A stretch of DNA of 20,000 nt. Source: Catajapyx aquilonaris. Its lineage: Eukaryota. Made by a program: the position numbers and the translations under genes. Under the pieces are notes generated by a model. That model did not search any database. It had not been told where the DNA came from and saw only the letters and a list, made by a program, of their open reading frames with translations. Positions 488 through 20,000 of the stretch are shown here, piece after piece. The DNA is taken from NCBI GenBank assembly GCA_000934665.2, contig JYFJ02002583.1, positions 44,405 to 64,404 of the forward strand, in the 5' to 3' direction. The stretch's first letter is position 1. Every line of letters starts with the position of its first letter.

Positions 488-896
488 TTTACTCTCCTTT
501 GAACTATAGTACAAGTGCAATTAAAATGTTAGGACCACCATTTTAATACTTGTGCTGTTGAAAATGAAGCAATCATAAATTTTTGAACATTGTAGACAGC
601 AGGTTGTGTTTTGGTAGCCTCCAGCTTAACAGTGGTAATGCTGTCAGAATATTTCCATGCAGTCCTACTGCATTACATTCCTACATTCAGTGGAAATGTG
701 TTCAAGTAGGACTGTAGGAAAATATTTTCTACCAATACACTTTCCTGTACATTCCTGTCAACATCTTTAAATATTCTTTTTGACTCATGGCTATTAAAAA
801 TAAAATAAAACTAGCACTTGCACATTACACAGTGGCCTTCTCTTCCTCAGTGCTACAGAAAAAGTTTCTTTTTTAGATAAACGACAACCTCTTGGG

Positions 897-1075
897 CTAT
901 ACCAACTTGGTGTTGAGGATTTCATACTCCTTCAAACGTTTCCTGAACTTGACACACACATCCACTGGAACACCTGCATCTCGATGGGACACTTTCTTCA
1001 TCAGCTTCTCCCACTTCTGCTCTAGGGCTGACTTCTCAAAAGGTGTTCTGGTACAAAATTCTGCCACTGTGCAAC
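897..1075 (-). CDS. POT1: POT1-like terminal coding exon (179 nt incl. TAG); not in the ORF track
   Basis: tttattccag|GTTGCA, phase 1. Translates GCTVAEFCTRTPFEKSALEQKWEKLMKKVSHRDAGVPVDVCVKFRKRLKEYEILNTKLV* (cf. POT1 C-terminus PWLECFIKSY...YQIFDTTV). Confidence 0.88.
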
Positions 1076-4000
1076 CTGGAATAAACCAAGCATCTTTTAG
1101 TTAAAGTGACATCATCAATAGATAAAATTTGGCATTCCCATTTCATGGCACTTTTTGACTTTGCAAGAAGCAAAACAGTTTGAAAGGTTTTAAACAATGA
1201 ACAATGGCAAAAATAAGGCAAAAACATCAAAACTTGCAGGATACCTGTTCTATTGAAGAATTAACCCTATTTAGACGGGAGGTTTTTTGGCGATTTTGTC
1301 GGATTTTGCACAGGTCAGAAAATAAATCTCTCTTTCAAGTATTTGTGCTTCCACACACTGGACTTGACTTTTGTCTCGTCAGTAAATGTCCAAGCTAGAT
1401 TCTAGCAACACTTCTTGGTGCTTTAAGGAATTTAGGGCTTGCCAAACCTTAAGGCCCTACACCCCCTCCGTTCTACGCGGGTGTGTAAATCCCAAGGTTG
1501 CATGGCTTTTATATGTTGAAAAGGCACAAGAGGTGGCATGGGCGGAGTTTTTGCTACTGCGGATTTTTTTTTTTTTTTGATGGTCCTTTTCAGACCAAGG
1601 TGCAGTAGACTTGTGTGTCTGGCCCAGCCAAGCCGCTATTTACTCAGACGTGATTAGTCACATGCGTAGGTTGAGAGCTACGTAGGAATAAGAAACCGCC
1701 TACCCAGAGCGCAAACTTGGCCTCCCTCTGATCCCCCCTACCCAGACCTATCCACCTCGGGGAAGGCCCGCGGATGGCCGGGCAGGGGTGCCTCGCCCTA
1801 ATAATTGAGCACTATCCAACATTATTTATTTATTTTTAAAACCTATTAATNGGGGGGGAGGTTTTTTTTTTTCAGCGGCAGATGATGGGCAGAAAATGTC
1901 ATTTAAGTTAATCTGGTGGTTTATTTATGCAAGATTTTGTAGTCCAAAATTCGAATTTATTTTTACATGAGAGATATATAGTTTCACCAGCAAAATTTTT
2001 GAAACCAGCGTATCAGCACATGATAAGACCGTCTAAATAGGGGTGCTATGGAGACCCATTGCCAGGGATACCCCATTGCTATGGTAACCTCTGGCGCTAC
2101 GGACAACCCTTGCCATGGAACTCCTGTTGCTGTGGATGCCCGAGATGCCTGTTGCCATGGTAACCATTGGGATCAAGAGTAGGGGTGGTCGAGGGCAGGA
2201 GGAGGAGGAGGAGGAGGAGGGGGGGGGGCAGCAAAAGTGAGTATCCCTCTGTCAAAACTAACCAAAAAATTCCTCCGCTCTCTTTCCAAAAAGTCTCGTC
2301 ATCAGCATCTTTCCTTTTTTGTCCTGCAGATAGACAAATACTTGCAGGAACACTTCAATATCTTCCTCACAAGTGGAGCAGTAGAAGGTCACTTCCTCTG
2401 CATTCCCCTGCCTCACACGCTTCTCAGGGCAAGTTGAAAGATAAGGGTATTGTTGAGCACATCCTGTGCAGGTGCCAATTATGTAGGCATACCATGGATC
2501 TGAGATGAAGATAAAAATTGGTTGCATAGACTGGTTGAATCACACAATTAACTTACAATTAATCCCAGGATGACCTCCAACAAGATATGAGCATACACGG
2601 TGCACCTTTTCTTCAGGATGGGATAGTGCATGTGAAGCCTTCACTGGTGTCTTCGTCATATCTGTAGCTAGAAGAAATAAGCAATTTGAATGTTCAATTT
2701 CCTTGACACTATTCCTACTGCGTACTCAGATCCACATGCATGTACAGTTGGTTAAAGGATTCGCTTACCACATGAGGAAGACAAATTAGCCTCCAATAGA
2801 AGTACTGTACTTGCTACAGGAGTGCGAGTCATTGCATCAGGGGAAGGCAGCACGTCTGTTGGAGGCTAATTTCTCCGCCTCATGTGGTAAGGAAATCCTT
2901 TAACTGACTGTCCTGTAACTAGTAGTTGCCTCCCAACTCCACATGAGATGCAAACATATTTTACACCCAGGATAGGGATTGAACCTGCAATGGGTGCACA
3001 CATTATTACAGTGTAGGGCGTCACAGTGGCCGAGTGGTTAGCGCCACAGCCTTCCACCTCTGAGGTCCCGAGTTCGATCCCCGGGTCGGACAGAGGATGC
3101 TTATGTGGATACAGTTTCGATGGGTTCTCTATATGTTCGCGTGGGTTTTCTCGGGGTTCGCCCGTTTCCTCCCACTATCAAAATCCATCACATTACAGGC
3201 AAATGATTAAAGTTGGTCTATTAAAAGATGATCCCCTAAAAAGCCCAAGGAGGCTAATCACGGGGTATCCATTATTATCATTATTATTATTTATGAACTT
3301 CATTCTTTGTGGTGTATTTAAAAAATATAATTTTTGCAAGGTTTGCTCTTCTTGTCAGAACTTGTTGTATTATCTAGAAGCAACATACTGTATAATGAAA
3401 CTTGTGCATAAAGGAGCCACTTGACTGCATTTTGTGTGCGTGTGTGTGTGGGTGGACGTGTCTTGCTATCCTTGTGAGGAATTTTGTCATTACGAGGTAG
3501 TTTTCCTGTACCTCATAGTGAACACACGCCTCACAAGGATAGGGTAAAATCGAAACAATACCTCATAGAGGCAGTAAAAATATATTTCACCAAAATTTCG
3601 TGTTTCCTTGCAGGTTAGGTTAGGTTAGTTTTAAATTTCAAATTTTGGAAAAACCGAACAAGGATAGGAATGCCCGCCTGTGGGTGGGTGTGTGTGCATT
3701 TAACAGGATTTCATTACACAAGATTGAAAGAATAAGTTTAAAATCATCTGCTGGAACAAAATGAAAGTTCATAATGTAGGGGAAAGTGGGGAGAAATCAA
3801 ACGTGGGGGAAATTTGACAGTGGACTCTGTTAGTCACCAAACAACAAAGAGAAAATTTAAATGTGAAAAATAAAATTTAAATGTGAAAAATGTCCCATTC
3901 CCGGGCCTATTCTGCCTTACATGTTCCCACTAAATCCAGGGCCCATTATATGCATGCTTCACATTTCAGCACCCACTTATTAATTTGTTTATGAGAAAAC

Positions 4001-7000
4001 ATTTAAAATTAAACCAGAAAATAAATGCACCTGCACCAGAACATACCAATTAATAGAGTTTTAAAAAACCCTTACTTGTTAGGAACGTAGCATGGCCTTT
4101 GAGGCTGGGACTTATAAGTGAGGTTCCCGAGGCCTCAGGCAGCTTCTTCTTTGGTGAGGAAACTTGATTATCAGTGAGGGCTTTTTTTGTGTCCTTAGAT
4201 GATTCAAGTTCCGATATATCCATTTCTGACGAGTCCTTTCTCGACTTTTTAAATGCATTTTTGAACTCTGCAAGGACATTTTTTACTCGTCTCTTCTGCT
4301 TTTGGGGAGGCAAAGCTTCCTTATTCCTCTTTTCTTGCCTTACCAACTCATTTTTAGGTGGCTGGTCTGCAGTTTCACCTCCTGAGGGTATGAGTTCCAC
4401 ATTTGCATGTGCACTCTTCATCTCCCTCTCTGACTTGCCTTGATGGTGTCGTAATTTCCTTTGAGGGCTTTTATCTGGATGCTTTGATTTTGATGATGAT
4501 GCACTCCTCGTATGAGCACTAATGAAATCCTGCTCATTTTTTGGTGATTCTAGCTTTTCAGGCTGTTTAGTTGTTTCTAGATTTTCAGGCTGTTTAGTGG
4601 AGGAGACTTTACCAGGACCCTCATCAGGCAACTTTTTCAATTCTTGTCCTGAAGTCCTTCCTGTTTGAGTCTGCACCCTTTCAAGACAGACCCGTGGAGA
4701 CTTCAATGGGATGTGCTTGTTTTCAGTCTCTTTCCTTTCCGGAGTGACAGCTGACATGTCCATTGTTTCTCCTTTGGGCACCTCATCCAACTTCTCTGGT
4801 GAAGCTTCCCCAGCCAAACTGGCTGAACCTCCTTCCTGTTTATCCTTTGATGAGACCTCCTCAGTACTTTGTGACTCACTCTCACTTGACAACTTCTGGG
4901 ACTTCTCAGTGTCACTGCCCTGCAAGTCACACAGAAATTGTAAGCCGAACTTGCATCTTGCTGACCTCACTTCTATTTCAGTGTCAACCACATTTTTGGG
5001 AGTGCATGATGTATCTTCTTCAGCAGCCTTGTCTTCAGCATGTCCATCACATTGCCTCTTCCCTGGAGTGAACATTTCACCTTCAATACTGTTACCAACT
5101 CGCTGCTTTTTGGAACTGGATGCAGCAATTTCAGCACTGGTTCTCTTCTGAGAAACACGGGTCAGCTTACTTTTAGGAACTGGAATATGCCTTTTTAACA
5201 TTTGGATGATAGGATGACCAGAGACTAATGGAGTGGCACAACTGCTGCCACCATTCAGCTTGGCAGAATACAGGATAGTACCATCAGTCCATTTTGTGTC
5301 CTCAAAGATCTCAACACCATATAACATGCAGTAGGTGTTAACCTGCAGCTGAGAGATATCCTCCAGGTGATCAAACACCACGACTTCAAGGACAGGACGT
5401 GTTTCATCATACCAGAGGCTCTTCCTTCCACTGATCATGTCACTAAAGGTGCGACTAGGAAGACTAAAAGTGGTGCCATCTTCCACCCGAAGCATGGTCA
5501 CTTGGCGCTCGATCACCTGTTTTCAAGAGCAAAGAACAAATAAAACTTTCACCATTTCTTTCAGATCTTCCGTACATAATAGACCCTTAAGCGAAAACCA
5601 AGGTTCTGATACAAAAATACAGTGGGACCTCATACTTGGAACAGCCCTAACTTCAAACGTTCCCGATTTTAGACATTCATGTGAAATTCGATCCAGAGTT
5701 CGAATGATTCTTTAAAGTTTGAACATCTTGAGCAGTGAAAAAAAATACACTCATTGCATAAATGCCTTCTGTTGTGCGCCCAACTCGTCTCTCCCTCTCA
5801 CTGTCAGAGCATCTCTTGTGTTACGCATTATGCTGTTGTCAGTGCTTTTTAAGCTTTATTATTACAGTATTAATGCATTTTATTTATTGTTTTCCTGTTT
5901 TAATTTATTATTTAGGGCATTTTATTGTGTTATTTTTATCTGAAATTATGAATAATTGCTGTTAAGTTTATCGAACTTGCTATTTTTTAGAATCTGGGAA
6001 TTGATTAATTACTTTCCATCATTTCTAATGGAAAAATTTATTCGGATATCGAACTATTCAGAGTTCAAATGGCCCCCTGGAAAGAATGAAGTTTGAAGTA
6101 TGAGGCACCACAGTGAGTGAGATCAGCAGTGTCATGAACTTTTCAATGCCACTGTACCCATCAGCTGTTGACTGTATCAATCACAACTCCAATTTTAAAA
6201 ACTTCTAAGCAGATAATAATACCTCATTATCCCTTCCCCTGACTCAATTTAATCAGTCAATCATACTTGACAATTCAATATTCACACAAGTTCACAAATA
6301 AACTGGGCCTATTCTACTGGGCCTAATAATGGCCAAATGGAGAGTTCTTACAATACACTGTAGTTTCCATACCAGAAAGACGAAATGCACTGTACAGTAC
6401 AGTACTGGAAAAAATAGCCTGTATCCCCTCAAGCAGCACCAAACGGCCAGCCAAGTTGGCGCAGGTGGAAGCGTGCATGAAACCTGTTTCCACCTGCACT
6501 CACACTGGCACTGCTTGCAGGGGAGCAAGGCTATTTTTTCCAGTAGTGTGATATCCACATGTCAAATCAGAATTATTTTGTCTACTTCTCCACAAACTCT
6601 CCATCACAGTCAATGCAATCTGACCTGTGCATAAATTTTAAATTTCCATCGAGTAGCACTCTGTTCCAGTACATCCTAGATGACACATCGCAGGTTGAGA
6701 ATTACAAGGTTGTAACTGCATAGGATTTTCAAGCGCCCGATTCTCATAGCCACTAAGGGCGAAAGTCGCGTACAGGCCGTGCATCCATCCCTGCTGGGTT
6801 AGGGGGGAAGCGGGTACGCGACTTTCGCCCTTAGTGGCTACGGGAATTGGGCGCTTCGCGGCGGGATGGCAGAAAAGTGGAAAGACCACGGTTCTATTCG
6901 TGGTTTTTTACTAAGGACTAGTTGGAGTATCCATGGCCAAAATTGCAAATTTTTTAAAATACCACTTTTTGAGATATTTGACCTTGAAGTACGCAAATTT

Positions 7001-10000
7001 CGAAATTTCTCCAATTTCTGACCTAAAAATCGGCCAGAATGGCTTGCAACCGTGAATTTATTTTACCACGGCTGGATGTCCTCCCAGTCCGAGTTCTTGA
7101 AAAAAAATATCCACCCTGTTGTTTCAAGCCATTTTGATTTTGCATTTGAAAAGGGCAAAATTTATCATTTTGGAGGCAATATGTAAGACCATTAAAGTTC
7201 CAGTTACCAAAGTTTTATCCTACCTGTATGTACATATTCTGAAAGGCCAAGACCTCTACTTTCAGGAAGTGAAAAGCAAAACATCCTAACTTGAATAGAC
7301 ACCAAACAATAGGCATTTTTAAGAACCCTTGCAAACGCTTGTTTTTGCTCGCCGCAGTGAAGAAAAATGAGCATAAATCCAACATGGTGGCAGATAAAAA
7401 ATTAATAAAAATAGTTTTGAGCTAGTCAATATCAAGGCTACACTGCAAATCATGTGCTGACTATGTGCTATGTCGTAGATAGCACAAGGTGGTCTAGTTA
7501 GCACGGCCGTTAGCACAGGGAAATTTGAATCTTAAGTCAGCACCGACTCAGCACATGCGCAAGACTGTGCTGACTGGATAAATAGTCAGCACACGGTGTG
7601 CTAAAACAAATGCTTAGGCAGCACAACAGTCGGCACATGAAAGTCACATGATAAATCCAGACAGCACAATCCCATCAGCGCATGATTCATGCGCTGATCC
7701 GCTCTTGTGCTTCGTCGAGCGGGGGAAAACCTCATGCTTGCCATTGTGTTGGAGTCGGTTGGAGTTGGTTGGAGTGCAAGTTGCTCTCATTTCTGCTGCA
7801 CAGGTGACAGTTGGTGACACGGCAAGATGAGGGACTTGCAAATATATAGGATACTTGCAAATTATTTGCTCATTTTTGCAGCATTGCAGGAATGGTGGTG
7901 AAGACTCAGGTGGGGAGAGGCGGAGGAGGGCCTGGGGCAGGTTGGGGGGGGGGGAAGAGGGAGGAGGGGCAGGTCTCCTGTGCTGACTCTCATGTCAGCA
8001 CAATAGCCAGCACAGCAGATGGCATAAAAAAACAAATTTGTGCTGGCTCAGAGGCAGCACATAGTCAGCACATGATTTGCAGTGTACCTGTGGTGAAAAT
8101 ATAAAAAATTAACTACTATCCGTTTATTTAATATAGAGCCCTGTCTTTGACTCTAAACAACTCCCAGGAAAATTATCCAAAAAAATAATGGTATGTATCG
8201 TTAGAAAGCTTGTTTAAATCCACGTTACATAATATATGCGAGTTGTTTTCCTTTCGTCAGTCTGTAATTTTTTATCGTAAAAAGAAGGCGGAAAAGTGTC
8301 ATTTTTTGACTAGTTGCCGACGTTACACCGCAAAGGGAATTTTTTATGACACTTTCAGGTGGCCAAAAAAATCCCCCTGTGAACCATGAATAGTGCACAT
8401 CTTTGTCTATCTAATGATATATTTGAAACATTGAGATCACCATTTGTGTAATCATAATTAAGTTAATTGCACACCTCTGTTATCTCGGCTGTTTATAATC
8501 CAAATTACTTCACAAATGTATCGATGGCAAGCCAGAAATGTGCGTGATAAGATTACACCATACTCTATTACCCTAAAAATTTTAAAAGTATTTAAAAGTA
8601 TCACTGTCTATTCCCGCCAGAAAGCGGGCTGGGTCCTTTTCTATTAAACTCACTAAAACAATACTTTTAAATTTTTTAGTGTAATAGAGCACAATGTAAT
8701 CTTATCACCCACATTCCTGGCTTGCCGTCGATACATTCGGGAAGTAATTCGGATTATAAATAGCCGAGATAACAGAGGTGTGCAATTAACTTAATTATGA
8801 TTACACAAGTGGCAATCTCAATGTTTCAAATATATCATTAGATAGACACAGATGTGCACTATCCAGGGTTCACAGGGGGATTTTTTTGGCCTCCTGAAAG
8901 TGTCATAAAAAATTCACTTTTTGGTGTAACATCGACACTTTTCCGCCTTCTTTTTACAATACAAAATTAGAGACTGACGATAGGAAAACAACTCGTATAT
9001 ATGTAACGTGGATTTAAACTAGCTTTTTCACGATACATACCATTATTTTTTTGGATAATTTGCCTGGGAGTTGTTTAGAGTGAAACTCAGGGCTCTATAT
9101 TAAATAAACGGATAGTAGAGGGTCGAGCAACCACCCTGGCCCACTTCGCATGGAATGACTCTTTAGCAGAAACCTGTTCATCAAGAAAAGTCTTCGTGGA
9201 ACAATGAGAGTCCAATGCAGACAGATATTGTAGTGGATTCACTGTAATTACTGGTACTCTCTCCCTTACTTAAAAAAAACTTACCCCTCGACATGTAAAG
9301 CTGATTCTGCAAAAGAGGTTGAACACCCCAGGTCCTTTAACATCCTTGATTTGCTTTATACCCAGTGGCTTGCTGCTGATCCATTCTTGCAGCTTATCAA
9401 TTGCCCGTTCTGCATCCACTATGCCTGCAGTCACTCTCATAGATTCAGCTAATATCAGCTCCTTTTCACTGCTCTCAGTGTCTGCCTTGTTTAATTCTTC
9501 CTCTCTTGACAAGTAGAATTCTCTGAGGGCTTTGATGTGCTCACGATCTTCCTCTGAAACACAACCCTTCTCTTTACATATCAGCAATGTTTCAATGGTA
9601 CCTTACTTAAGGATCGATACAGTGATACAATGGGTGGCAGGAAATCAATGGAAGTAGATGTTTTAAGGCAAATGGAGCATAGAGGGGAAAAACGAGAGGA
9701 GTTATGAGTGTTGTGAAAGTTAGGCTCATTTTCAGAAACAGCAACATGCTGCATTAAATTTCTAATCAAAAGTAGCCCCTGGTGGTGTATATGCATTCCC
9801 CTGGATTTCTATAGTGAACAAACTCAAAAACTTTCCAAAATATTAGATTAAGACCAATGATTAAGACATACAAAAAAAACAGAAAATACAGGAAGTACCC
9901 GTTTACGCTGTTTCACATTAACGCATGATCAAAAAATTATATTTGAAAAATTTTAAGATGATAACACAATCTAAACATAAACACACCACAACACTTCTCA

Positions 10001-13000
10001 GAAACCAAACACACAACCGTGATTGCTCCTCTTTTGTTTTTCCTGGTGCCTTGTGGCAGGTTCTATCGCAGCGGTTCTCAACCTTCCCCACATTGGGCCC
10101 CTCTGGAAAGTAATTTCAGATATCTCATTTACTTACATTATTTATTAACAGCGTAAAACGAGTACTACCTGTACTGATATCGCAGTCACTCTGGCAGGAG
10201 AGCATGAGAAATTAATTCATATAAAAAGTAATACATAACATATGTCCAGGTAATTTGGAATTGACAAAAATGCTCACATTATGGTATTTTCTGCGAATGT
10301 ATTCACGCATATTGAGAATATTTTGAGATATATTGCAGACTTGCTTTTTAGAGCACAACTCTCCCATCTCAAGGTATCACCTAGGAACCAGACCATTCTT
10401 CACGTTATGCATGAATGGCTTGAAATGCTTGTGAAAGAATCCAGTTTCATTCAGCTACCATAAATTGGTCTTTTCAGTGTATGATGATCTTACAACTCCA
10501 TTACTTCACTTATCTGTCTATCATAATTAGCATGCCAATAAATGCAGCATTAATATACCGGATTGCAAGAAGTGGTACCTGTGAAAGTGTATGTCTTAGC
10601 AATGGTCCATGGCTCGAGATCCTCACCACTGCCTTTGTGGAAAACTACCAGGTCCTGCAGCCTGAAGATGCGGCCATCAAGCTTCTTCTCATACTGCTCC
10701 ACCTTCACAAAATAAGATGCCAATCGTGAAACCTTATAAGTAGTTGTTGCTCCGCAAGTGTGTGTCGTTATGGCTGCCCAGAAAGAGCCCGCCCTGCGGC
10801 AATTACCTTTTCTGCCTGTAGTGGTAAATGAAGCTCTCAAAAATTTGATTTTCTTTGTGATCTCGCCTTCATCTCCTATTGTTGCATTTGAGAAATATAA
10901 TTTATTGCAACTCGCGGCCGCCCCTAGGACAGTGCCTATTGTGCCTAATGGGAAATCTGGCGTTGATTATCTTCATGACCAGGTTGCGTATGTTGCCCGC
11001 ATCTGTTTTCCTCCCTACCACGTCTTCCAGTAAGGTTCTCTCTCTCCCGTCCACCCTCCCTCCCACTCTCTTCTGCCTGGAAGACAGTCATCTTGCCCCG
11101 GTGTTGAGGATGGTGTTCATGATCATGTTGCCTGTATGTTGCCCGCACCTGTTTTCCTCTCTACAGCGTCTTCCAGTAAGGTAATTATTTTTGTTGAAGA
11201 GCAGGATTGAGAAGAGCAGCCCCCGGACACTACCCTCTTATTATCGCCCTATGGGCCTGACGGGGCGTTTTGTGGGAGGTGACTGCATGTATTGCATGCA
11301 TAGTATTATAAGGCCATGGTGGAGAGATACAGACTCTGAGCAGTCAGCAGCATCGAAGCGACATCCGATGGTAACGACATTTGGCGGTAACATGCGGAAG
11401 TAGGTGACCTGAGAGACTGATAGTGGCACAATTGGGAATTGCGTGGAGCTGGCCTCGTGGTATTTGCAATTTACGTATTCCCTGTTCACTTTTTCCTAAA
11501 AACAAGTGGTGGGCATATACAGGGTGATCCAACTCTGTGGCACCAACAGTTATTGGAAAAATCAACAAGCTGCTTGTTTATAAGCAGGTCGTTGCTAAGA
11601 GATCAATAAGAGTTACTTTCTGGAGAATCGGGAATAGCACCTGCTGATATTAGGTCCAATGCCCATGTAACAATATTAATGAGGGAAAAAAGGATCATCC
11701 GTGGGAAACAGGCTGTTCTGGTGTTCGCTGGAGGGTTTCACATGAGGTCACTAGCTGCCAAACCAAAGGTCNGTGGATCGAGTAGTAAAAGTACGTGCCA
11801 CTAGATGGCATTGGAGTCAGCCGACAGCCATCACAAGATGGCGGCGACACTTACGAAGTGCACCAAAGAAGAACAGCGGGCCGTCGTGAGATTGTTGCGG
11901 AGTGAAGGGATTAAGTCGATCGAAATCCACTGCAGGATGGCCCTGAAATATGGGGACGTGTGCATGTCGCAGGGGGGAGTGTACGCGTGGTGCAAAAAAT
12001 TCGTAACAGGACCCGTATACTGGGCCCGTATACTGGCCGNATGTAACAATATTAATGAGGGAAAAAAGGATCATCCGTGGGAAACAGGCTGTTCTGGTGT
12101 TCGCTGGAGGGTTTCACATGAGGTCACTAGCTGCCAAACCAAAGGTCTAATCCGTCGGAACTGGACAGACCCGGGTGTGTCAATAAATAGGCCTTCTGGT
12201 CTGTTCATTGTTGGCCGCTGTTGGCAAAACTGAGACAGGTCAACAGGCAGCGTTGTTTAGTTACCAGCAAATAAAATATTATTGTTACATGGCCATTGGA
12301 CCTAATATCAGCAGGTGCTATTCCCGATTCTCCATAAAGAGCCAGAAAGCATCTCAGGCAATGGATTTCTTAGAGTGAACTGCTGGGCCCATGGCCCCGC
12401 CCCCAAACAAACTTCTCTCCTCCCTCCCCCACCACTTTGGCACCATGACAACATGTACATGGGTATCTCTCCGCCAGAGCCGGACAACTTATTCCGATGG
12501 TGCTTATGCGCGCCGAAAAGAAGTGAAAAGAAGAGATTCGAACACCGTTGCCTTGGATTCGAACAATGCTTCGAAATTACGTGGGCACGGATCCCGATGC
12601 TCTTTTGTCTCTCGCCTTGAAAGTAGTCCCCATGTGGCAAGGTTGCTGATTTTAATTTTTCTATTACGCTATTCTAAATAATGCTTTAGTGTTCATAAAT
12701 TATGTCAGAACCAAATAATTGATATCGGTCGAATTCCTTTTTAAAATACACATGTTAATTACAATTATGTATTTCACCTGGCAACCTCACTGTGACGCAC
12801 GGTCATACAGGCGACCCCATTGGTTCGTCCGTGGGGGCGTGTCTGTTCACTCTAAGAAATTCGTTACCTATAGCAACGACTTGCTTATAAACAAGCAGCT
12901 TGCGCGATTTTTTCAATAACTACTGGTGCCATAGAGTTGGATCACCCTGTATAGAAGACACTGGCAAAATTTTGAGAGCACTCCCAACGCTGTAGGCCGT

Positions 13001-15885
13001 ACGGTTCGGGCGGAGATATGGGTACAGTAGGATATTAATAATATAGATGACTGCTTTGGGGTCAGGCTAATGGCCAAAGCAAAGTGACTTGTCACAACAA
13101 CTACAACACAGCCATCACACAACTCATTACTAAAAAAAAAACTTATTTCATTGTTGGTTTACCCCTTCCCTCACAAAAATATAATCTACAATGGGGAGAC
13201 GGAGTGGCGCCGCGGTAACGCGCGCGCGCCCACGGAAGTTAAGGTCCCGGGTTCAATCCCCACCCGGGGTTCCCACCTTCTTTCGTGCAGAGTTGGGCCA
13301 TCTCTGGCTTAGTTTCGGGTGGCAATTTCCGATAGACTAAGCCACCCGGGGGAGTTCACAAAATGACGATTAGAGACATTGCACTTGCACTTTGCACATC
13401 CCCTCCCACCCACCCTTGGAGTACACTAATAAGATTCTATCTTAACTAGCTCCAACGAAAACCCCAATGGTGGTAATCCACCCCCCCTAAGGAGTACGTA
13501 ACTCCCCCCGTGGGGTAATTCAAAAAAAATAAACAAAATAAAAAAATAAAAAAAATAAAATAATATAATCTACAATATTCATACATGCAAAAATCTTTTG
13601 AGGGGGGAAGAGAGACCAAAGCCTGAATCTTAATTAATTAAGCATGTACTACCGTACATTTTTGGCTGTGTAACAAGATTTCCTTGTGCATAAAGCTTTT
13701 TATGGCTCAATTCTCTCTTTCATTGAAGTAATGTGTATTGAAACTGTAAAGGAATAACCAGTGATTATTGCATGCAAAAATCTTGCTCTCCACTATGGCT
13801 AGGACCTAATGCTAAACACACTGTTCCCCACCTTCATCCGATGAGCTCTCACAATATCCCCTTTCTCCAGTGGAGGTTTCTTGTCGCCCTTCTTGGAGTA
13901 AATGTGAAGAAGGAAGTCATCACAAGTCTCATCTTCAATGGCTACCATTGCATGGACCTTCACACCCTCCCTTGTGGGTGCTGGTTCCTGTTAGGTCACA
14001 AATGAGAAATTATAGATTAGGAGAAGGCAAAATCATTGCAGGTGCACACAGGGTGTAACTCTTAGATGTGTTAATTTTAATGAGTGATTTTTCATTCTAA
14101 TTTGCTTATTTTTTTAAACCAACTGCTTTGGAGTAGTTACTTTCATATTACTATAAGTATTAGCTGCTAATATTAGGCCAAATGGATTCATATTCCCAAG
14201 CTCTGAATTTCAATAAATTTTGATTTGGTTGACTGATATATACGTATTGGACTTTATATGGCACAACAGCAGCAGTGGCTATTCTGTGCCAGAAACAAAT
14301 TTTGAGTAGGAATGGCATATTGAAACAACTGGCAACAACCCATTTTTTTCAGCCCAGATTCCTTTGCAGGCATTTAAAAGGGCGGGTCCATGCAACCTGA
14401 CTTATCAATTAATACTCGTACTTCTGATAACCACTGCAGGTGACTATTCAAAAGTAACTGATTAAAAATACAGTTCACTGACAAAAAATAACCACCTAAA
14501 ATGGATATATCAATTGGAACACACTGTACACTTCAAACCGATCATCAAAGTATGCAACTGCTTACCTTTAGGATACTCTTGACTAATCCATACACATGAC
14601 ATTCCACCTTTGACAACTTAATATCTTTGAGAGATGTGTACTTATAATCATCTCTGCCTTTCTCATCTACTTTTGAAACAGTTTTTTCCGACACGTTCGT
14701 CTGTTTTACTGATGCTGTACTGGCTCTTCGGTCTCCTGTGGGAATTATGGCTTTCAGTGACTCACTTGACCTCTTTCTTAGTGAGCGTTTACTTCCTGAG
14801 CTAGGGCCAGCTTCCTCAGTGTCAACTTCTACATGTGGCAGTACTTTCAGAGACCCAGGACTTCCTCTTGCACGGGCAACTCTTGGCCTAGGTGGAGTTG
14901 TGGGCAGGTTGTCATTGCTAACTCCATGACTGTTATTTAATGAAGCCTCTGTATTGCTTGAATCATCAATGATCTTTTCCTTCCCCTTATTTTTGTTGTC
15001 TGCACTAGCACTTTGGTCTCGAGAGTAAGACACTGTTTTTGGTGACTGAGCAACATTTTTTTTTGGCAAGACTTCAGATTCTGAGTTAGGGTCAGCTTCC
15101 TTCGAGTCACGCTGAAGTGGCAACTTTTGTGGAGATGGATGTTCCAGGCACGTGACATATGTACTACCTGACTCCTGGCTCCCTTCTGTGCCGGAAATTC
15201 TAGGCGAAGGTGGACTTGTAGACAGGTTGTCATTGCCAACTACATGACTGCTATTTAATGAAGCATCTGTATCACTCGAGTCATCAACAATTTTCTTTCG
15301 TTTCCCCTTCTTTTTGTTTTCTCCACTGGCTCTTTGGTCTCGCGTGGAAGGAGTTGTTTTTGGTGATTCAAATAACTTCCTTCTTGGTGAGGGTGTATGT
15401 CTTGAGCCAGAGCCTGCATCCTCATTATCATGTTGAAGTGGCGACACCTGTGGTGACGTGTGATGTGTGACACATTTACTAACTGATTCAGGGCTTCCTC
15501 CAGCACTGGTGACTATGTGCACAGGTGGACTCATGGGCAGGTTGCTATTGTCAACTGTATGACTGCTATTTATTGCAGCCTCTGTATCACTTAAGTTATC
15601 AATAATATGTTTTGGCCTCTCTCTTCTTCTAAACCCAGTTTGCTTGACTCTTGATGGGGAAGTGTCAGAATCTGAGTCGGCAATAACAATCACATCTGAA
15701 GCATCTTTATCTTTTCTTGCAATACTACGTGTCACACGCACATTCTTCATGGCCTCACTGAGGTTTGTGTGTGTTGACACTGCCTCAAAATCTTCTGAAA
15801 AAGTTCCTGGCAAGCCCCACTCAAAGTCGAGTGTTTCTGGCATGTTCACAGCAAGTGAATCTACATCACCATCAGAGTTGTCATT
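897..15885 (-). CDS. POT1: POT1-like telomeric ssDNA-binding protein, multi-exon gene span (8 confident exons, ~1278 aa; true 5' start unresolved)
   Basis: Spliced translation gives colinear POT1 motifs: YKYTSLKDIK..HVYGLVK, IEDET..LHIYS..KGDIVRAHRMKVEQY (OB1); IKDVK..FNLFCRI, LRVEDGT, VVVFDH, KLNGGSS (OB2); CTGC..CSTC, YLQDKKG..AEEFFG, VDVCVK..YEILNTKLV* (OB3). All seven introns are GT-AG and intron phases match. Confidence 0.9.
1265..2042. mobile_element. piggyBac-like non-autonomous element
   Basis: TTAA (1261-1264) followed by CCCTATTTAGACGG; exact reverse complement CCGTCTAAATAGGG at 2029-2042. The right-hand TTAA is absent. Contains an n at 1851. Confidence 0.6.
2043..2165. repeat. Degenerate ~17-18 bp tandem array of TTGC(C/T)ATGG-type units
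   Basis: Units gtgctatggagac, attgccagggatac, attgctatggtaac, ggcgctacggacaac, cttgccatggaac, gttgctgtggatgc, gttgccatggtaac. Confidence 0.6.
2198..2228 (+). repeat. (GGA)n microsatellite plus poly-G
   Basis: ggaggaggaggaggaggaggagggggggggg read directly. Confidence 0.9.
2263..2499 (-). CDS. POT1: POT1-like exon (237 nt), OB3 with Zn ribbon
   Basis: atctcag|ATCCAT...TTTTTTG|gttag, phase 1-1, after a 57-nt intron. Encodes CTGC-x26-CSTC followed by FLQVFVYLQDKKGKMLMTRLFGKRAEEFFG. Confidence 0.88.
2557..2667 (-). CDS. POT1: POT1-like exon (111 nt), start of OB3; not in the ORF track
   Basis: ttatttcttctag|CTACAG...ATTAATT|gtaagt, phase 1-1. Translates TDMTKTPVKASHALSHPEEKVHRVCSYLVGGHPGIN (cf. 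TDHQYLERTPL..QQYRIRAKLRSYKP). An alternative in-frame acceptor lies 6 nt further on (exon start 2661). Confidence 0.8.
2745..2910. mobile_element. Tc1/mariner-type MITE
   Basis: Imperfect ~55-bp TIRs (cagttggttaaaggattcgcttaccacatgagg... / ...cctcatgtggtaaggaaatcctttaactgactg) with TA on the left. Confidence 0.75.
3016..3293 (+). mobile_element. tRNA-derived SINE with V-domain-like core
   Basis: A box TGGCCGAGTGG (3027-3037), B box GTTCGATCC (3072-3080), core gtgggttttctcggggttcgcccgtttcctcccac resembling the V-SINE domain, (ATT)n tail. Confidence 0.8.
3434..3697. mobile_element. (TG)n-flanked non-autonomous element with internal TTAGG repeats
   Basis: TG microsatellite at both ends; ctatccttgtgagg inverted to cctcacaaggatag and acaaggatag; AGGTTAGGTTAGGTTAG at 3612-3628. 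Confidence 0.6.
4076..5516 (-). CDS. POT1: POT1-like exon (1441 nt), OB2 plus long disordered linker
   Basis: aaacag|GTGATC...CTAACAA|gtaag, phase 0-1. Lies within ORF 4050..5516. The first ~110 aa (LRVEDGT, VVVFDH, KLNGGSS, IQMLKRHI) match OB2; the rest is S/K/E-rich. Confidence 0.9.
5620..6113. mobile_element. Tigger/pogo-like MITE
   Basis: TA + cagtgggacctcatactt ... aagtatgaggcaccacag (imperfect TIR); AT-rich interior. Confidence 0.7.
6400..6548. mobile_element. Small MITE (hairpin)
   Basis: TIR cagtactggaaaaaatagcct / aggctattttttccagtagtg, plus inner arms gcaggtggaa / ttccacctgc; TA on the left. Confidence 0.7.
6731..6856. repeat. GC/CpG-rich inverted repeat (43-bp arms, ~40-bp loop)
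   Basis: aagcgcccgattctcatagccactaagggcgaaagtcgcgtac / gtacgcgactttcgcccttagtggctacgggaattgggcgctt. Confidence 0.85.
7441..8084. mobile_element. Non-autonomous TIR element with CACTG ends and TA TSD (CMC/CACTA-like or Tc1-like)
   Basis: Perfect 29-bp TIR CACTGCAAATCATGTGCTGACTATGTGCT, TA on both sides, many subterminal gtcagcaca/tgtgctgac motifs. Confidence 0.85.
8113..9118. mobile_element. ~1-kb foldback/palindromic DNA element
   Basis: Arms of ~460-480 bp (ctactatccgtttatttaatatagagccctg... / ...cagggctctatattaaataaacggatagtag) with a short spacer near 8592-8658. Confidence 0.85.
9285..9553 (-). CDS. POT1: POT1-like exon (269 nt), OB1 terminal helix, linker and start of OB2
   Basis: gtttcag|AGGAAG...CGAGGG|gtaag, phase 1-0. 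Translates EEDREHIKALREFY...IKQIKDVKGPGVFNLFCRISFTCRG (cf. TEDHKMVEALRVW...LCDVQPMQYFDLTCQL). Confidence 0.9.
10069..10110 (+). mobile_element. hAT-like left terminus (partner end not found)
   Basis: CAGCGGTTCTCAACC at 10069-10083, a Charlie-type TIR. Confidence 0.4.
10579..10702 (-). CDS. POT1: POT1-like exon (124 nt), end of OB1
   Basis: gtgaag|GTGGAG...TTCACAG|gtacc, phase 0-1. Translates VEQYEKKLDGRIFRLQDLVVFHKGSGEDLEPWTIAKTYTFT (cf. POT1 IQVYKK...PRTSSKYFNFT). Confidence 0.88.
10993..11182 (+). repeat. Direct repeat pair of ~42 bp, ~146 bp apart
   Basis: ttgcccgcatctgttttcctccctaccacgtcttccagtaaggt versus ttgcccgcacctgttttcctctctacagcgtcttccagtaaggt. Confidence 0.7.
11622..12334. mobile_element. 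Nested MITE inside the 11520-12949 element
   Basis: ~55-bp inverted repeat ggagaatcgggaatagcacctgctgatattaggtccaatg / cattggacctaatatcagcaggtgctattcccgattctcc. Confidence 0.75.
11838..12011 (+). pseudogene. Mariner transposase N-terminal HTH fragment
   Basis: MAATLTKCTKEEQRAVVRLLRSEGIKSIEIHCRMALKYGDVCMSQGGVYAWCKKFVTG fits the Mos1-type HTH pattern (EQRAVIRFL..EG....EIH.R....YG..C.S...V..W...F..G). No DDD domain; bounded by n at 11772 and 12040. Confidence 0.85.
13193..13561 (+). mobile_element. Young tRNA-derived SINE with 15-bp TSD
   Basis: A box TGGCGCCGCGG (13205-13215), B box GTTCAATCC (13251-13259), A-rich tail, perfect TSD AATATAATCTACAAT at 13178-13192 and 13562-13576. Confidence 0.9.
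13832..13987 (-). CDS. POT1: POT1-like exon (156 nt), OB1 core; not in the ORF track
   Basis: aacag|GAACCA...ATGAAG|gtggg, phase 0-0. Translates EPAPTREGVKVHAMVAIEDETCDDFLLHIYSKKGDKKPPLEKGDIVRAHRMK, which matches the POT1 GDIVRFHRLK motif. Confidence 0.92.
14566..15885 (-). CDS. POT1: POT1-like exon (1320 nt): disordered repeat-rich N-terminal arm plus start of OB1
   Basis: Acceptor atttcag|AATGAC, donor CTAAAG|gtaag, phase 0-0. Contains most of ORF 14545..15849 and ends YKYTSLKDIKLSKVECHVYGLVKSILK, like the POT1 N-terminus (YIYTPLNQLK..NVYGVVK). Confidence 0.88.
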
Positions 15886-16146
15886 CTGAAATTTATAAAA
15901 CTATAATTACTGCCCATGTAACAAAATTCTCAAATGATTATGATAAATACTAACAAAGTAGGTTACAATACACATGCTATCAATACTAGTAATTAATACC
16001 ATTATATTTGTGTGCTGCATCTTGTTAACTGAACTACTGCCACCTAATATTATGATTCATTGACAGTATCAGGAAAAAACAAATAAGCAACTCCGATCAC
16101 TTCTGAACAAAATGCAGGTTTCAAGCTGAATTAACAAGTCATGAAC

Positions 16147-16283
16147 CTTTCTCCATCTCTGGGTACAAAGTTGCTTTCTGACACCAGATATCCTGACTTT
16201 CGCCACCATTGCATGACCAAAATAAGAACAGAAGCCTTCCATTTTGGTAGTGGTAGAGCATTTTGCCATGCACTTTATACAAA
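16147..16283 (-). CDS. Candidate upstream exon (137 nt), Cys-rich
   Basis: cacccag|TTTGTA...AGAAAG|gttcat, phase 1-0, compatible with both neighbours. Translates VCIKCMAKCSTTTKMEGFCSYFGHAMVAKVRISGVRKQLCTQRWRK. The donor is weak. An in-frame ATG at 16269 could be a start. Confidence 0.45.
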
Positions 16284-16377
16284 CTGGGTGAATATAAATT
16301 TTCTATGCAGACAAGTACTGCCATCAAGGATTTCAAACTGTCCGATACAAAGTCTACTTCAGCCAATGATGATGATA

Positions 16378-17136
16378 CATGGGTTGTTTCATAAGTCATG
16401 TCGTGTATTTTTTAAATTCAAAAACGGTAACACATACAGAGATGACCTCTGCTGAGATTTGAAGATCCGGCAATTACAATTTGGTCTGGCAAAGAGATGT
16501 CGCCCATATCACAACATTTGGGGGCCTGGAAACAAAAGAGGATCATGAGCCTCCACCTATCCATCTCCCTAAGCCTGACGCTCTTGGAGCTGTTGAACTT
16601 GGAATGCGGGACACTCAGCGATGGACAACACGAGAGCTTGATTTCGCGTGTGGGACAAGTGAGAGCATTATGCTTAGGACTCTGAAAAACTGAAAGGTCT
16701 CAAGAAGTTGGGAGTCCTCATTGGCTTTCTAGCCATCTCTCTGATGTGCGAAGGTGATGCCACTTTGCCCTTGCCGAAACCTTGGCCGAAACACATTGGA
16801 ACTCTGGCTCAGTGAGGGCCATGGTTTTCTTGAACGAAATGTGGCGACGGATGGCACATAGTGCTCTGACTTGTTCCACAGTCAAAATCAAGCTTCCGTG
16901 TTGTCCATCGTAGAGTGTCCTCCATGCAGCGTCCAATAGCTCCAAGCGCATCTTAGGCCAATGGCGCGGTGTGGGGTCACGATCCCCTTTTGTTTCCCTG
17001 CCACCCATGCGATATGGGCGACATCTATATACCATATCAAATTGTAATCGCTGGATCTTCAAAACTGAGCAAAGGTCATCTCCGTATGTGTTACCGTTTT
17101 TGAATAATAAAATACGTGCTGATGAAACAACCCACA
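16378..17136. mobile_element. Old long-TIR DNA element (Tc1/mariner-like)
   Basis: Diverged ~290-bp arms: gggttgtttcat...attcaaaaacggtaacacatac.gagatgacct / aggtcatctccgtatgtgttaccgtttttgaat...atgaaacaaccc. ORFs 16141..16455(+) and 16718..17137(-) share FKNGNTY.DDLC as a mirror effect. Confidence 0.8.
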
Positions 17137-17503
17137 CATAAGGTTTAGTAAGATCTGGCAGAAAATGTGTTTTTGCTAGGATGTACAGTAGTTTTCATAA
17201 TCCCCACCATAACCACCAGCAGTGTCTACAGTTGGTAGCCTATCCAACCAAAAATCCTACACACTAAACCCCCTTGAAATATGTAACTTTCGAATAAACT
17301 TAAACATGATCCGAGAGAAGTGAAATAGGCTGCGATAAATGACAATGCTCAGAAATTCGAGAAAGGCACATTTCATGCTATTCAGGCCTCACAGCAACAA
17401 CTTAGCAGCACTGGGTGACTTGAGACACTTCAGAATAGTTTGTCACATCCAGAAGTCCCTTTGACCAGTCTCATTTACTACGGGTAAAAATAAAAAGGGG
17501 CAC

Positions 17504-17797
17504 CTGCCTTTTCTGGAAGACCAGACTTTCTATTCTCATTGGTCCAGGCCACGTTCCAGGCAAGCCGCTGGCTAAGTAAGATCCGGGATTCTTCATGCTG
17601 CTCATTGTGAATCAATATCTCCCAGACACATTTCGTGTCCTTAAATCTCCTGGCATGTCCTTTAATGCACCGTACATCTGTTGGATTGTGCACAAGGATA
17701 AACGCATTCACCAGATTCGGGGCCCTCTCCAGGGTCTGTGCAAGTTGACCAGGAGCAATTAAAGAAACATGGTCACCCCGAGTGTAGTCTGGAAGGA
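17504..17797 (-). CDS. Candidate upstream exon (294 nt), globular-looking, unassigned
   Basis: tttttattccag|TCCTTC...AAGGCAG|gtgccc, phase 1-1, inside ORF 17478..17927. No convincing phase-1 donor found upstream. Confidence 0.4.
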
Positions 17798-19496
17798 CTG
17801 GAATAAAAAGCGAAACTGAGATGGTCTTGAGGAGTTCAAAGTAATGGCTCACTGATTTATGCAAACTCCTGTATGAACATGACAATAAATTACCCCAATT
17901 TAAAATTACATTAAGCCAGTCTTGCATTGCAGTTTGAAACTATTCATGTAAGATTTTACATTTATTGACTGTAACAATACTATAGTCTGACCATTCATAA
18001 ATTGTCTTGAGGTGCCTTTCAGATCAATTACCACCCTCCCTTGTTCAGAATACATTGGTAGCCATAGCCTAGCCCTGACCCTCCTGCTGCTCAAATTACT
18101 ATCATGCAGACTCAGTCATACATCCTGGAGCCTACCCCTAGCATGTAATGCCAACTGCTGAAATGTGCTCTTTGCTTAATTCTAGGGAAGGGAGTTTTCC
18201 AAATTCCCACAGAGGCCCTTCCACAAGTAACTTGCAATAAACCAGAATATCACCCTTTCTCTCATGGATTGTACACATTACCATTGTGCAAAAGCTTGTA
18301 GCCCTCTCTGTCCTAATGTCCCACATGTTGTCAGTCTGTGCCCTTGATAATAACACTGATCTGCATTTTCTGACTTTTTTTCTGTTGTTTTGAAATAAAC
18401 ATGTGTATCCAAACGGATTTTTTCTGCAGATTAGGAAAATGACATTGAAAATCTCCTACTACGTCCAGTTTTCGAGTTACAGGGTGTGTCATAAATTCAC
18501 GTTGGTATGTCCACATGTCCAGCACGTGACGTGGATGGAGTTGACCTACAGCAACGTCCTTACACCACAATGTTGTGACACGGATCCTTGTTACGACCAC
18601 CACCTTTCATTCCGATTGCATCATTCCACTGGGAGTTATGCACCTCTGAAGGTGTAAAAGTGTGGGTCAGAGGTGAATATCGGTGACCTTGCGGGTATCA
18701 AATAAAATCATAATTACGTAATTAATAAAGATACCATTAATTGTGATATTGTACGATGAGTAGGTGGCGATGCTCTATCATATTCCATCATCAAACAAAG
18801 TGCCTGACAATTCAAGATGTATCGGGAGTGTTTGGAAGAGACCCCCACCCATGCGCAAAGGGCAATTAATCGGGAAGGAACAAAGTATGCAACACTATAC
18901 GTTATGTGGATGGGTAGGGGTCTCTTCCAAACGCTCCTGATCCATCTTGAATTGTCATGCACTTTATTTGATGATGGCGTATGATAGAGCATCACCACCT
19001 ACTCATCGTGCAATATCACAATTAATGTTATCTCGATTAATTACACAATTATGATTTTATTTGATGCCCGCAAGTTCACCGATATGCACCTCCTACCCAC
19101 ACTTTTACACCTTCTGAGGTGCATAACTCCCAGTGGAATGATGCAATCGGAATGAAAGGTGGTGGTCGTAACAAGGATGCATGTCACAACAATGTGGTGT
19201 AAGGACGTGGCTGTAGGTCAACTCCATCCACGTCACGCGCTGGACATGTGGGCATACCCACGTGAATTCATGACACACCCTGTAACTCGAAAAGTGGACG
19301 TAGTAGGAGATTTTCAATGTCATTTTCATAATCTGCAGAGAAAATCCGTTCAGATAGACATTTCCATTTCAAAACAACAAAACCTTGAATATTAGTGTAA
19401 TCCGTCTGTACCAAGTATCCCTGGTAGTAAAGTTATGGCCGTACTTTCAACGTCCTGGTAAGCAGCGATGGGGCAGAGCGAGGGGGAGTGTGACAT
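17798..19496 (-). pseudogene. Decayed OB-fold-like coding tract, frameshifted and interrupted by a palindromic transposon
   Basis: Abutting minus ORFs in shifting frames (18138..18356, 17906..18094, 17478..17927). The segment DV*LSLHDSNLSSRRVRARLW...GQTIVLLQSINVKSYMNSFKLQ has the OB-fold strand pattern but an in-frame TGA. The frame stays open across the 18354-19397 insertion when it is removed in silico. Confidence 0.4.
18354..19397. mobile_element. ~1-kb palindromic CACTA-like element with TAA TSD
   Basis: Ends CACTG...TAGTG, TAA on both sides (18351-18353, 19398-19400), ~470-bp arms with spacer near 18860-18905. Mirror ORFs 18403..18657(+)/19105..19329(-) and 18331..18603(-)/19159..19395(+). 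Confidence 0.85.
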
Positions 19497-20000
19497 CTAA
19501 GCAGTCAGTAGCCTATGTAGTTCAATAAACATCTCCGAATATCTCATTTTTAAAATGGAATATAGAACCATGTTCGGGTTATTTGTGTTTTCCGGTTATC
19601 CGGGCACATTTGTGCATTAACGCAGATATGCCGAGTGTGCCCTATAGGGGACACCTGCACAGTTATTACATTTTAATTTTTTGCACAGGTTCTTCTGCTG
19701 CTAAAGAGCTGGCAGTAGTGATGGGGGCTTCAGTAGAGTCCCAGCTAACTATACAAGTTCAAACCTGCTCAATATTGCTTTAGATTTTTAAGATACAGGT
19801 GATTGAATTTTAACGCAGGAAATAATGGCTGCACCTCCACGTTCCGAAGACGATTAGTAATTAATTCTCGAATGTTGATTAGCATTATGAGTTATTTTTT
19901 GTTTGTAATACTTAGAAAACTTATGAATGATGATGTCCATGTGGAAATATAGGCATTTTTTACTTTCCTTGTCTGAGGGTGGCGTTGAAATCGGGTGTCC

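Follow-up and report, generated by a model that had tools for sequence, protein, structure and literature searches.

The locus analyzed here raises two questions: whether a gene with several OB-like folds encodes a POT1 protein, and whether the unusual size of its product is real. Human POT1 has 634 residues, whereas the protein described here has at least 1374, more than twice the usual size. The original prediction for this eukaryotic DNA (approximately 42% G+C, gene on the minus strand) was a double-sized POT1-like protein with two disordered arms. We analyzed the window (the whole stretch of 20,000 nt) through: (i) an exon model built by a search for phase-compatible acceptor and donor sites on the minus strand; (ii) alignment of the contigs of a public run, X1 (85,611 contigs, 31.8 million letters), to the whole window; (iii) segmentation of the protein by FoldIndex and composition; and (iv) family, structure, and homologue searches with translated exon pieces. 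The record of run X1 is silent on library type, and we read the run as cDNA because several intron bins have zero depth.

The exon search independently rebuilt the previously proposed phase-consistent coding sequence of about 1278 amino acids, with identical exon coordinates. Its eight exons join in phase from 15885 to 897 (minus strand) into 3837 nt comprising 1278 codons and the stop codon at 897-899, with no internal stops and with GT..AG at all seven introns. The two longest exons, of 1320 and 1441 nt, have the sizes given earlier. The model is incomplete at its 5' end: the coding sequence does not start at 15885, which is a splice acceptor, and the frame there has no Met. Rfam and tRNA scans of the window returned no matches. 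From 5' to 3' of the gene, the features of the eight-exon model are the following:

14566..15885, minus strand: exon of 1320 nt, comprising linker 1 (residues 1-412 of the model) and, in residues 413-440, the initial strand region of OB1; both ends spliced in run X1
13832..13987, minus strand: exon of 156 nt, middle of OB1; junctions confirmed by run X1, sub-threshold Pfam match to POT1
10579..10702, minus strand: exon of 124 nt, end of OB1; junctions in run X1, no Pfam match on its own
9285..9553, minus strand: exon of 269 nt, helical acidic OB1-OB2 connector and first OB2 strand; junctions in run X1
4076..5516, minus strand: exon of 1441 nt; both ends spliced in run X1
5181..5516, minus strand: rest of OB2, the 5' part of the 1441-nt exon; positive FoldIndex, OB-fold neighbours in the Atlas
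4101..5180, minus strand: disordered linker 2 (OB2-OB3 hinge, 360 residues) within the 1441-nt exon; from FoldIndex and composition
2557..2667, minus strand: exon of 111 nt, start of the C-terminal OB (OB3); junctions in run X1
2263..2499, minus strand: exon of 237 nt, OB3 core with an embedded Cys4 zinc ribbon; junctions in run X1, sub-threshold Pfam matches
897..1075, minus strand: last coding exon, end of OB3, stop codon at 897-899; junction in run X1
537..896, minus strand: 3' UTR of at least 360 nt; a contig of run X1 spans 537-1072

Downstream of the 3' UTR, the minus-strand AATAAA at 482-487 is likely the poly(A) signal of the gene. The window as a whole holds 47 copies of AATAAA, against 22 expected from shuffles. 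The 57-nt mini-intron at 2500-2556 is a multiple of three in length with one in-frame stop; it is spliced out in run X1, and its retention would truncate the protein just upstream of the zinc-ribbon exon.

Segmentation of the 1278-residue model gave a clean split by FoldIndex, positive for the OB segments and negative for the linkers:

Residues 1-412: linker 1, unfolded, FoldIndex -0.07; S 16%, D, P, and K 8% each
Residues 413-535: OB1, folded
Residues 536-597: OB1-OB2 connector, helical, acidic
Residues 598-735: OB2, folded, FoldIndex +0.23
Residues 736-1095: linker 2, unfolded, FoldIndex -0.15; S 14%, K 13%, E 11%
Residues 1096-1278: C-terminal domain, folded

The low-complexity content of about 770 residues that had been proposed corresponds to 772 residues (1-412 and 736-1095), 73-74% of which are S, K, E, P, D, T, N, Q, G, or R, with negative FoldIndex.

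To place the folded domains, we performed family tests on single unspliced exons, that is, on partial domains, which weakens each test. First, a Pfam scan of nine exon pieces gave PF02765 (POT1) as the sole match of the OB1 exon of 52 residues (E-value = 0.15; 12.3 bits against a cut-off of 29). The alignment places exon residues 19-52 on positions 42-81 of the 140-position profile, as expected from the 45 domain residues (27 + 18) that precede the match in the spliced protein. The 45- and 41-residue pieces flanking this exon had no Pfam matches. As a further lead, the beginning of OB1 and, within the 52-residue exon, the stretch G-D-I-V-R-x-H-R-x-K appear very similar to human POT1.

The second domain was analyzed through a piece of 135 residues that is devoid of the domain's first strand, and PF16686 (POT1PC) matched none of the nine pieces at E ≤ 10. 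The Pfam comparison of single exons thus returned PF02765 below threshold, in a colinear position, and POT1PC not at all. As a lead only, the Atlas neighbours of the OB2 piece were OB-fold clusters (POT1, POT1PC, SHLD2_OB1, and REPA_OB_2) with scores of 0.80-0.83, which lie within the range of shuffled sequences. Two POT1/POT1PC clusters are among those listed, the POT1PC-bearing one with a score of 0.82. The ten best family-bearing neighbours all agree with the top one in family or clan, those listed being OB-fold, an agreement that a third of shuffled proteins also reach. Single-sequence AF2 modelling of the OB2 piece gave a pLDDT of 45.6, too weak to classify.

Pairwise searches returned little. 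None of six phmmer searches with exon pieces of 52-480 residues (partial domains) found a POT1, TEBP, or RPA chain in the PDB at E ≤ 10; these exon-level searches detected no pairwise similarity between the protein and solved POT1 chains, human POT1 being represented by structures 1XJV and 5UN7/5H65 (cited in the available sections of PMC8653790 and PMC10197580). The best PDB match of the OB2 piece was 5gus, a bacterial "helix-turn-helix domain-containing protein" (E-value = 0.0042 over 40 residues), which is probably a chance match. The same piece had no relatives at E ≤ 0.001 (phmmer, 1.84 billion representatives), and a metagenome scan with it yielded 142 pattern-matching stretches, none of them confirmed. 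Word-based homologue searches against longer proteins likewise gave no match for the 480-residue exon, for the coding exon found upstream of the model (see below), or, at E ≤ 10, for the 52-residue exon.

Finally, the OB3 exon encodes a C-x2-C-x9-C-x16-C-x2-C pattern at 2369-2470 (minus strand) inside the hydrophobic C-terminal domain, and this pattern contains the four Zn-binding Cys of the POT1 C-terminal OB. The fold of this Cys4 domain would be an OB. Its exon had sub-threshold Pfam matches to Rep_fac-A_C (E-value = 0.0023-0.0066; 16.7-18.1 bits against a cut-off of 28.5), KDM6_GATAL (E-value = 3.5e-4), DUF4503 (E-value = 0.066-0.1), and further zinc-ribbon families. According to the available sections of PMC8653790, the OB3 of POT1 is an RPA70-C-like OB, which in invertebrates lacks the vertebrate HJRL and carries variable inserts, the Zn-binding Cys being always kept. 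The Rep_fac-A_C and zinc-ribbon matches fit this description. In the protein described here, OB3 has almost no insert, with Cys pairs 26 residues apart, and the HJRL insert of human POT1 is absent.

Taken together, the POT1-like character first proposed for this protein is supported by OB-like folds in POT1 order and by an OB1 exon that matches POT1 only, and it is weakened in that every curated threshold was missed. We consider membership of the POT1 family quite probable. The order of parts is shared with human POT1: OB1, OB2, a flexible Ser-rich hinge, and a C-terminal OB with four Zn-binding Cys. The hinge covers about 40 residues in human POT1 (aa 299-341; PMC10197580, available sections) and about 360 here, and this protein further carries, unlike human POT1, an additional domain upstream and a linker of 412 residues with repeats. 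Our preferred reading is a POT1 orthologue with expanded linkers, to which we assign a probability of approximately 0.68.

An alternative, in line with the missed POT1 thresholds, is another RPA70-like multi-OB protein with long disorder (SHLD2-, RADX-, or HROB-like), acting on single-stranded DNA at breaks or forks. RPA70 (RPA1) resembles this protein as a multi-OB protein with a zinc ribbon in its last OB, reflected here in the weak Rep_fac-A_C match, and the available sections of PMC8653790 give RPA70 as the proposed ancestor of POT1. SHLD2 resembles it in combining a long disordered region with RPA-like OB folds. The Atlas clusters of SHLD2_OB1 (score 0.81, 13% of members carrying this family) and REPA_OB_2 score nearly equal to the POT1 clusters, and the sub-threshold matches of the OB3 exon to Rep_fac-A_C and DUF4503 point in the same direction. 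Against this, the OB1 exon matches POT1 only, at a colinear profile position, and none of the nine single-exon pieces matches the SHLD2, RADX, or RPA OB-A/B Pfam families at E ≤ 10, REPA_OB_2 and tRNA_anti-codon included. A true RPA70 orthologue should have thousands of relatives, whereas the search with the OB2 piece gave none; conservation at the level of RPA70 is missing, and the Rep_fac-A_C match lies below its cut-off. In addition, SHLD2, RADX, and RPA70-like proteins have three contiguous OBs, those of SHLD2 at its C-terminus, unlike the arrangement split by a 360-residue hinge observed here. We therefore regard a protein of this kind as unlikely.

A POT1-derived paralogue with a non-telomeric or specialised role (e.g., germline-, repair-, or replication-linked binding of single-stranded DNA), while a compact POT1 encoded elsewhere caps the chromosome ends, would account for the very divergent sequence, for an OB2 piece with no database relative, and for the long, fast-evolving repeats in the protein. 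Rodents provide a precedent, with POT1 duplications that divide the labour (PMC8653790 and PMC10197580, available sections). On the other hand, the complete set of predicted POT1-type domains is retained, including the putative partner-binding zinc OB3, a second POT1-like sequence was not seen within the DNA analyzed, and we judge a paralogue improbable relative to the orthologue with expanded linkers.

The second question was whether the size of this protein is real. Contigs of run X1 bridge all seven introns of the eight-exon model at the exact predicted boundaries, so that each junction predicted from the sequence is present in these contigs. From 5' to 3' of the gene, the contigs skip 578, 3129, 1025, 3768, 1408, 57, and 1187 nt, all with CT..AC on the plus strand. 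One contig of 1773 nt runs from 537 in the 3' UTR across the last three introns to 4961 in the 1441-nt exon, and another of 1164 nt runs from 5026 in the 1441-nt exon across four introns into the 1320-nt exon. With the upstream exon described below, all eight introns of a nine-exon model are bridged at canonical boundaries, and these account for eight of the nine joints listed for run X1 in the window. The ninth joint, 10057->10121, was rejected as an intron of the gene, given its intronic position, non-canonical AG..GA ends, and a shorter side of 20 letters. The POT1-like locus is a genuine, transcribed, and spliced gene of at least nine exons.

The contig pieces listed cover 886 nt (4076-4961) and 489 nt (5026-5514) of the 1441-nt exon, and approximately 125 nt, 248 nt (14748-14995), and 257 nt (15629-15885) of the 1320-nt exon. 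Within this partial coverage, transcripts neither skip nor trim the long exons, both ends of which are spliced, and none of the joints listed falls inside them. The two exons are contained in stop-free frames of 451 and 490 codons, whose chance occurrence at the base composition of the window is about 1e-12 and 9e-14, respectively. It is very improbable that the long exons arose artefactually, through retention or mis-joining of sequence or through a chimera of transcripts from two genes, and that the real protein is of normal size: the unrecorded library type and the piecemeal coverage leave some room for this explanation, whereas the canonical splice sites in use at both ends of both exons, the frame kept throughout, the lack of listed internal joints, and the chance of 1e-12 or less for such frames all argue against it.

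Run X1 also extended the gene in the 5' direction, with two additional features:

17508..17797, minus strand: upstream coding exon, 96 codons, no Met; 3' end joined to 15885 in run X1, 5' boundary predicted
15886..17507, minus strand: GC-AG intron of 1622 nt; joint 15885->17508 in run X1, ends CT..GC on the plus strand

The intron reads AAG|GCAGGT ... TTTCAG| and keeps the reading frame open through 96 further codons, and the 5' boundary of the exon was predicted from an acceptor at 17798-17800 (a polypyrimidine tract followed by cag). Because this exon is in frame through the GC-AG intron, the gene comprises at least nine coding exons and encodes at least 1374 residues; because it has no Met, the start codon lies further upstream. 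When 17798-20000 was searched for a phase-compatible exon with an ATG, just two candidates emerged, both implausible and no longer than 3-5 codons. A large share of this region is a 1-kb foldback repeat: just upstream of the exon, 18380-19382 is an almost perfect palindrome of 1 kb, with 478-nt arms that are 91% complementary and a 47-nt spacer, which is probably a foldback transposable element. Within the GC-AG intron, 16409-17112 holds a nested pair of inverted repeats (arm lengths 105 and 96 nt), and 16718-17194 (minus strand) holds a 158-codon frame with no Pfam matches; these repeats and this frame are probably a decayed mobile element.

The upstream exon encodes 96 hydrophobic, β-rich residues (FoldIndex +0.05), which probably form a folded N-terminal domain. 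Its single-sequence AF2 model (pLDDT 57.2, too weak to classify) has the order strand, helix, four strands, helix, and Foldseek and VIA searches for an OB fold with this low-pLDDT model retrieved unrelated small β folds only. The original prediction compared the protein with a POT1 in which OB1 comes almost first; according to the available sections of Myler et al. (2021; PMC8653790), this arrangement is limited to primates and rodents, and an additional OB at the N-terminus, OB-N, is present in most metazoan POT1s. An OB-N has also been described in the Pot1 of Ustilago maydis (PMC9119445, available sections). By analogy, the domain encoded by the upstream exon is a candidate OB-N. The protein resembles the four-OB metazoan POT1 described in the same sections of PMC8653790 in having a folded domain N-terminal to OB1 and conserved Zn-binding Cys in OB3; it differs in that the upstream domain is only a candidate OB and that 412 disordered residues precede OB1.

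The upstream exon also changes how the two disordered segments are to be seen. Linker 1, which had been described as a free N-terminal arm, is internal, between the N-terminal folded domain and OB1, and the second arm corresponds to an enlarged OB2-OB3 hinge of 360 residues. Long disordered insertions are common in orthologues. Linker 1 contains three tandem repeat units of about 105 residues at 14650..15615 (minus strand), namely 15615-15301, 15300-14980, and 14979-14650, each with a head of the form K-I-[IV]-D-[DN]-x-S-[DN]-T-[DE]-A ... N-x-N-L-x-x-[ST]-P-P. The units share 44-48% amino acid identity and 65-69% nucleotide identity in pairwise comparisons, and Tandem Repeats Finder did not detect them at the DNA level. 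Third codon positions have diverged almost as much as the other positions, and linker 1 motifs thus give no sign of selection. A motif scan of linker 1 identified one strong and three weaker acidic motifs resembling SUMO-interaction motifs (SIMs), the strongest of which precedes the three repeats:

15658..15693, minus strand: SUMO-interaction-like motif, VIVIADSDSDTS, a hydrophobic core followed by an acidic/Ser run; from the motif scan

Judged by the SIM consensus, VIVIADSDSDTS is a putative SIM. Linker 1 also has basic clusters (e.g., KKKGKRKK) and many S/T-P sites, and linker 2 carries acidic Ser clusters together with basic clusters.

In our preferred reading, the gene product would be a POT1-family protein that binds single-stranded telomeric DNA, with a predicted alternating layout of an N-terminal folded domain, 412 disordered residues, OB1, the connector, OB2, 360 disordered residues, and the zinc-ribbon OB3. 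By analogy with human POT1, OB1 and OB2 would grip the G-rich 3' overhang, while the zinc-ribbon OB3 may hold a TPP1-like partner and the upstream domain would correspond to the OB-N of most metazoan POT1s. Both long segments could be lineage-specific expansions of the OB-N/OB1 linker and of the OB2-OB3 hinge, acting as flexible tethers and regulated docking sites. Rich in Ser and Asp, the hinge of human POT1 (aa 299-341) binds Ctc1 in a manner that depends on phosphorylation (PMC10197580, available sections), and in fission yeast SUMO-SIM contacts connect Tpz1/TPP1 to Stn1-Ten1 (PMC4197044 and PMC5955624, available sections). Taken by analogy, these findings suggest the most concrete putative mechanism for both expansions: in the hinge, which is much longer here than in human POT1, the acidic Ser clusters could bind CST once phosphorylated, and the acidic VIVI-type motif together with the repeat heads could bind SUMO-modified partners. 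That the disordered segments would serve as built-in recruitment arms, as originally proposed, is a reasonable but speculative hypothesis, as is the idea that such arms would take the place of TPP1/TIN2. A stronger version, in which an arthropod-lineage POT1 would be a self-contained telomere hub whose linker 1 motifs and phospho-acceptor hinge directly recruit CST, telomerase, or duplex-binding factors and replace TIN2/TRF bridging, has in our estimation only a slim chance of being correct.

Arthropod chromosome-end proteins are almost unstudied. A BLAST survey from 2014 reports, in its available sections, no POT1 or other shelterin orthologue in two aphid species, four other insects, and two mites (PMC4296714), and the main metazoan shelterin survey excluded arthropods from its TRF analysis (PMC8653790, available sections). 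In the sections of the literature available to us, two reviews and a paper on lepidopteran telomerase RNA included, we found no description of an arthropod POT1 architecture, and the only arthropod POT1 in print was a POT1 homologue of Daphnia, mentioned from the PANTHER database in a 2015 paper that, in its available sections, does not give the architecture (PMC4427308); sequence databases may hold annotated arthropod POT1s. The gene described here encodes a probable new architectural variant of POT1, in which a repeat array and two disordered expansions, placed where linkers lie, account for the size. As a transcribed POT1-like gene, it would offer a concrete entry to the arthropod telomere cap, and its long hinge and repeat-bearing linker would lend themselves to testing how the linkers of POT1 control the recruitment of CST and other partners.

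Outside the gene proper, the window contains further expressed or mobile sequences. The 3129-nt intron holds, in antisense orientation, a Met-initiated frame of 142 codons at 11805-12233 (plus strand) with one assembly N and no Pfam matches, which we take to resemble the N-terminal helix-turn-helix of mariner/SETMAR-type transposases. Two intronic stretches, 2669-3335 and 12674-13340, have summed contig depths of 134 and 515 in run X1, against 1-11 on the exons; their translations resemble copies of a tRNA-derived SINE, in line with dispersed expressed repeats. At the upstream edge of the window, 19344-20000 is covered by contigs of run X1 at a depth of 46-55, with single-base differences at 19685 and 19781, and these contigs represent either an expressed or repeated element or the region of the next upstream exon.
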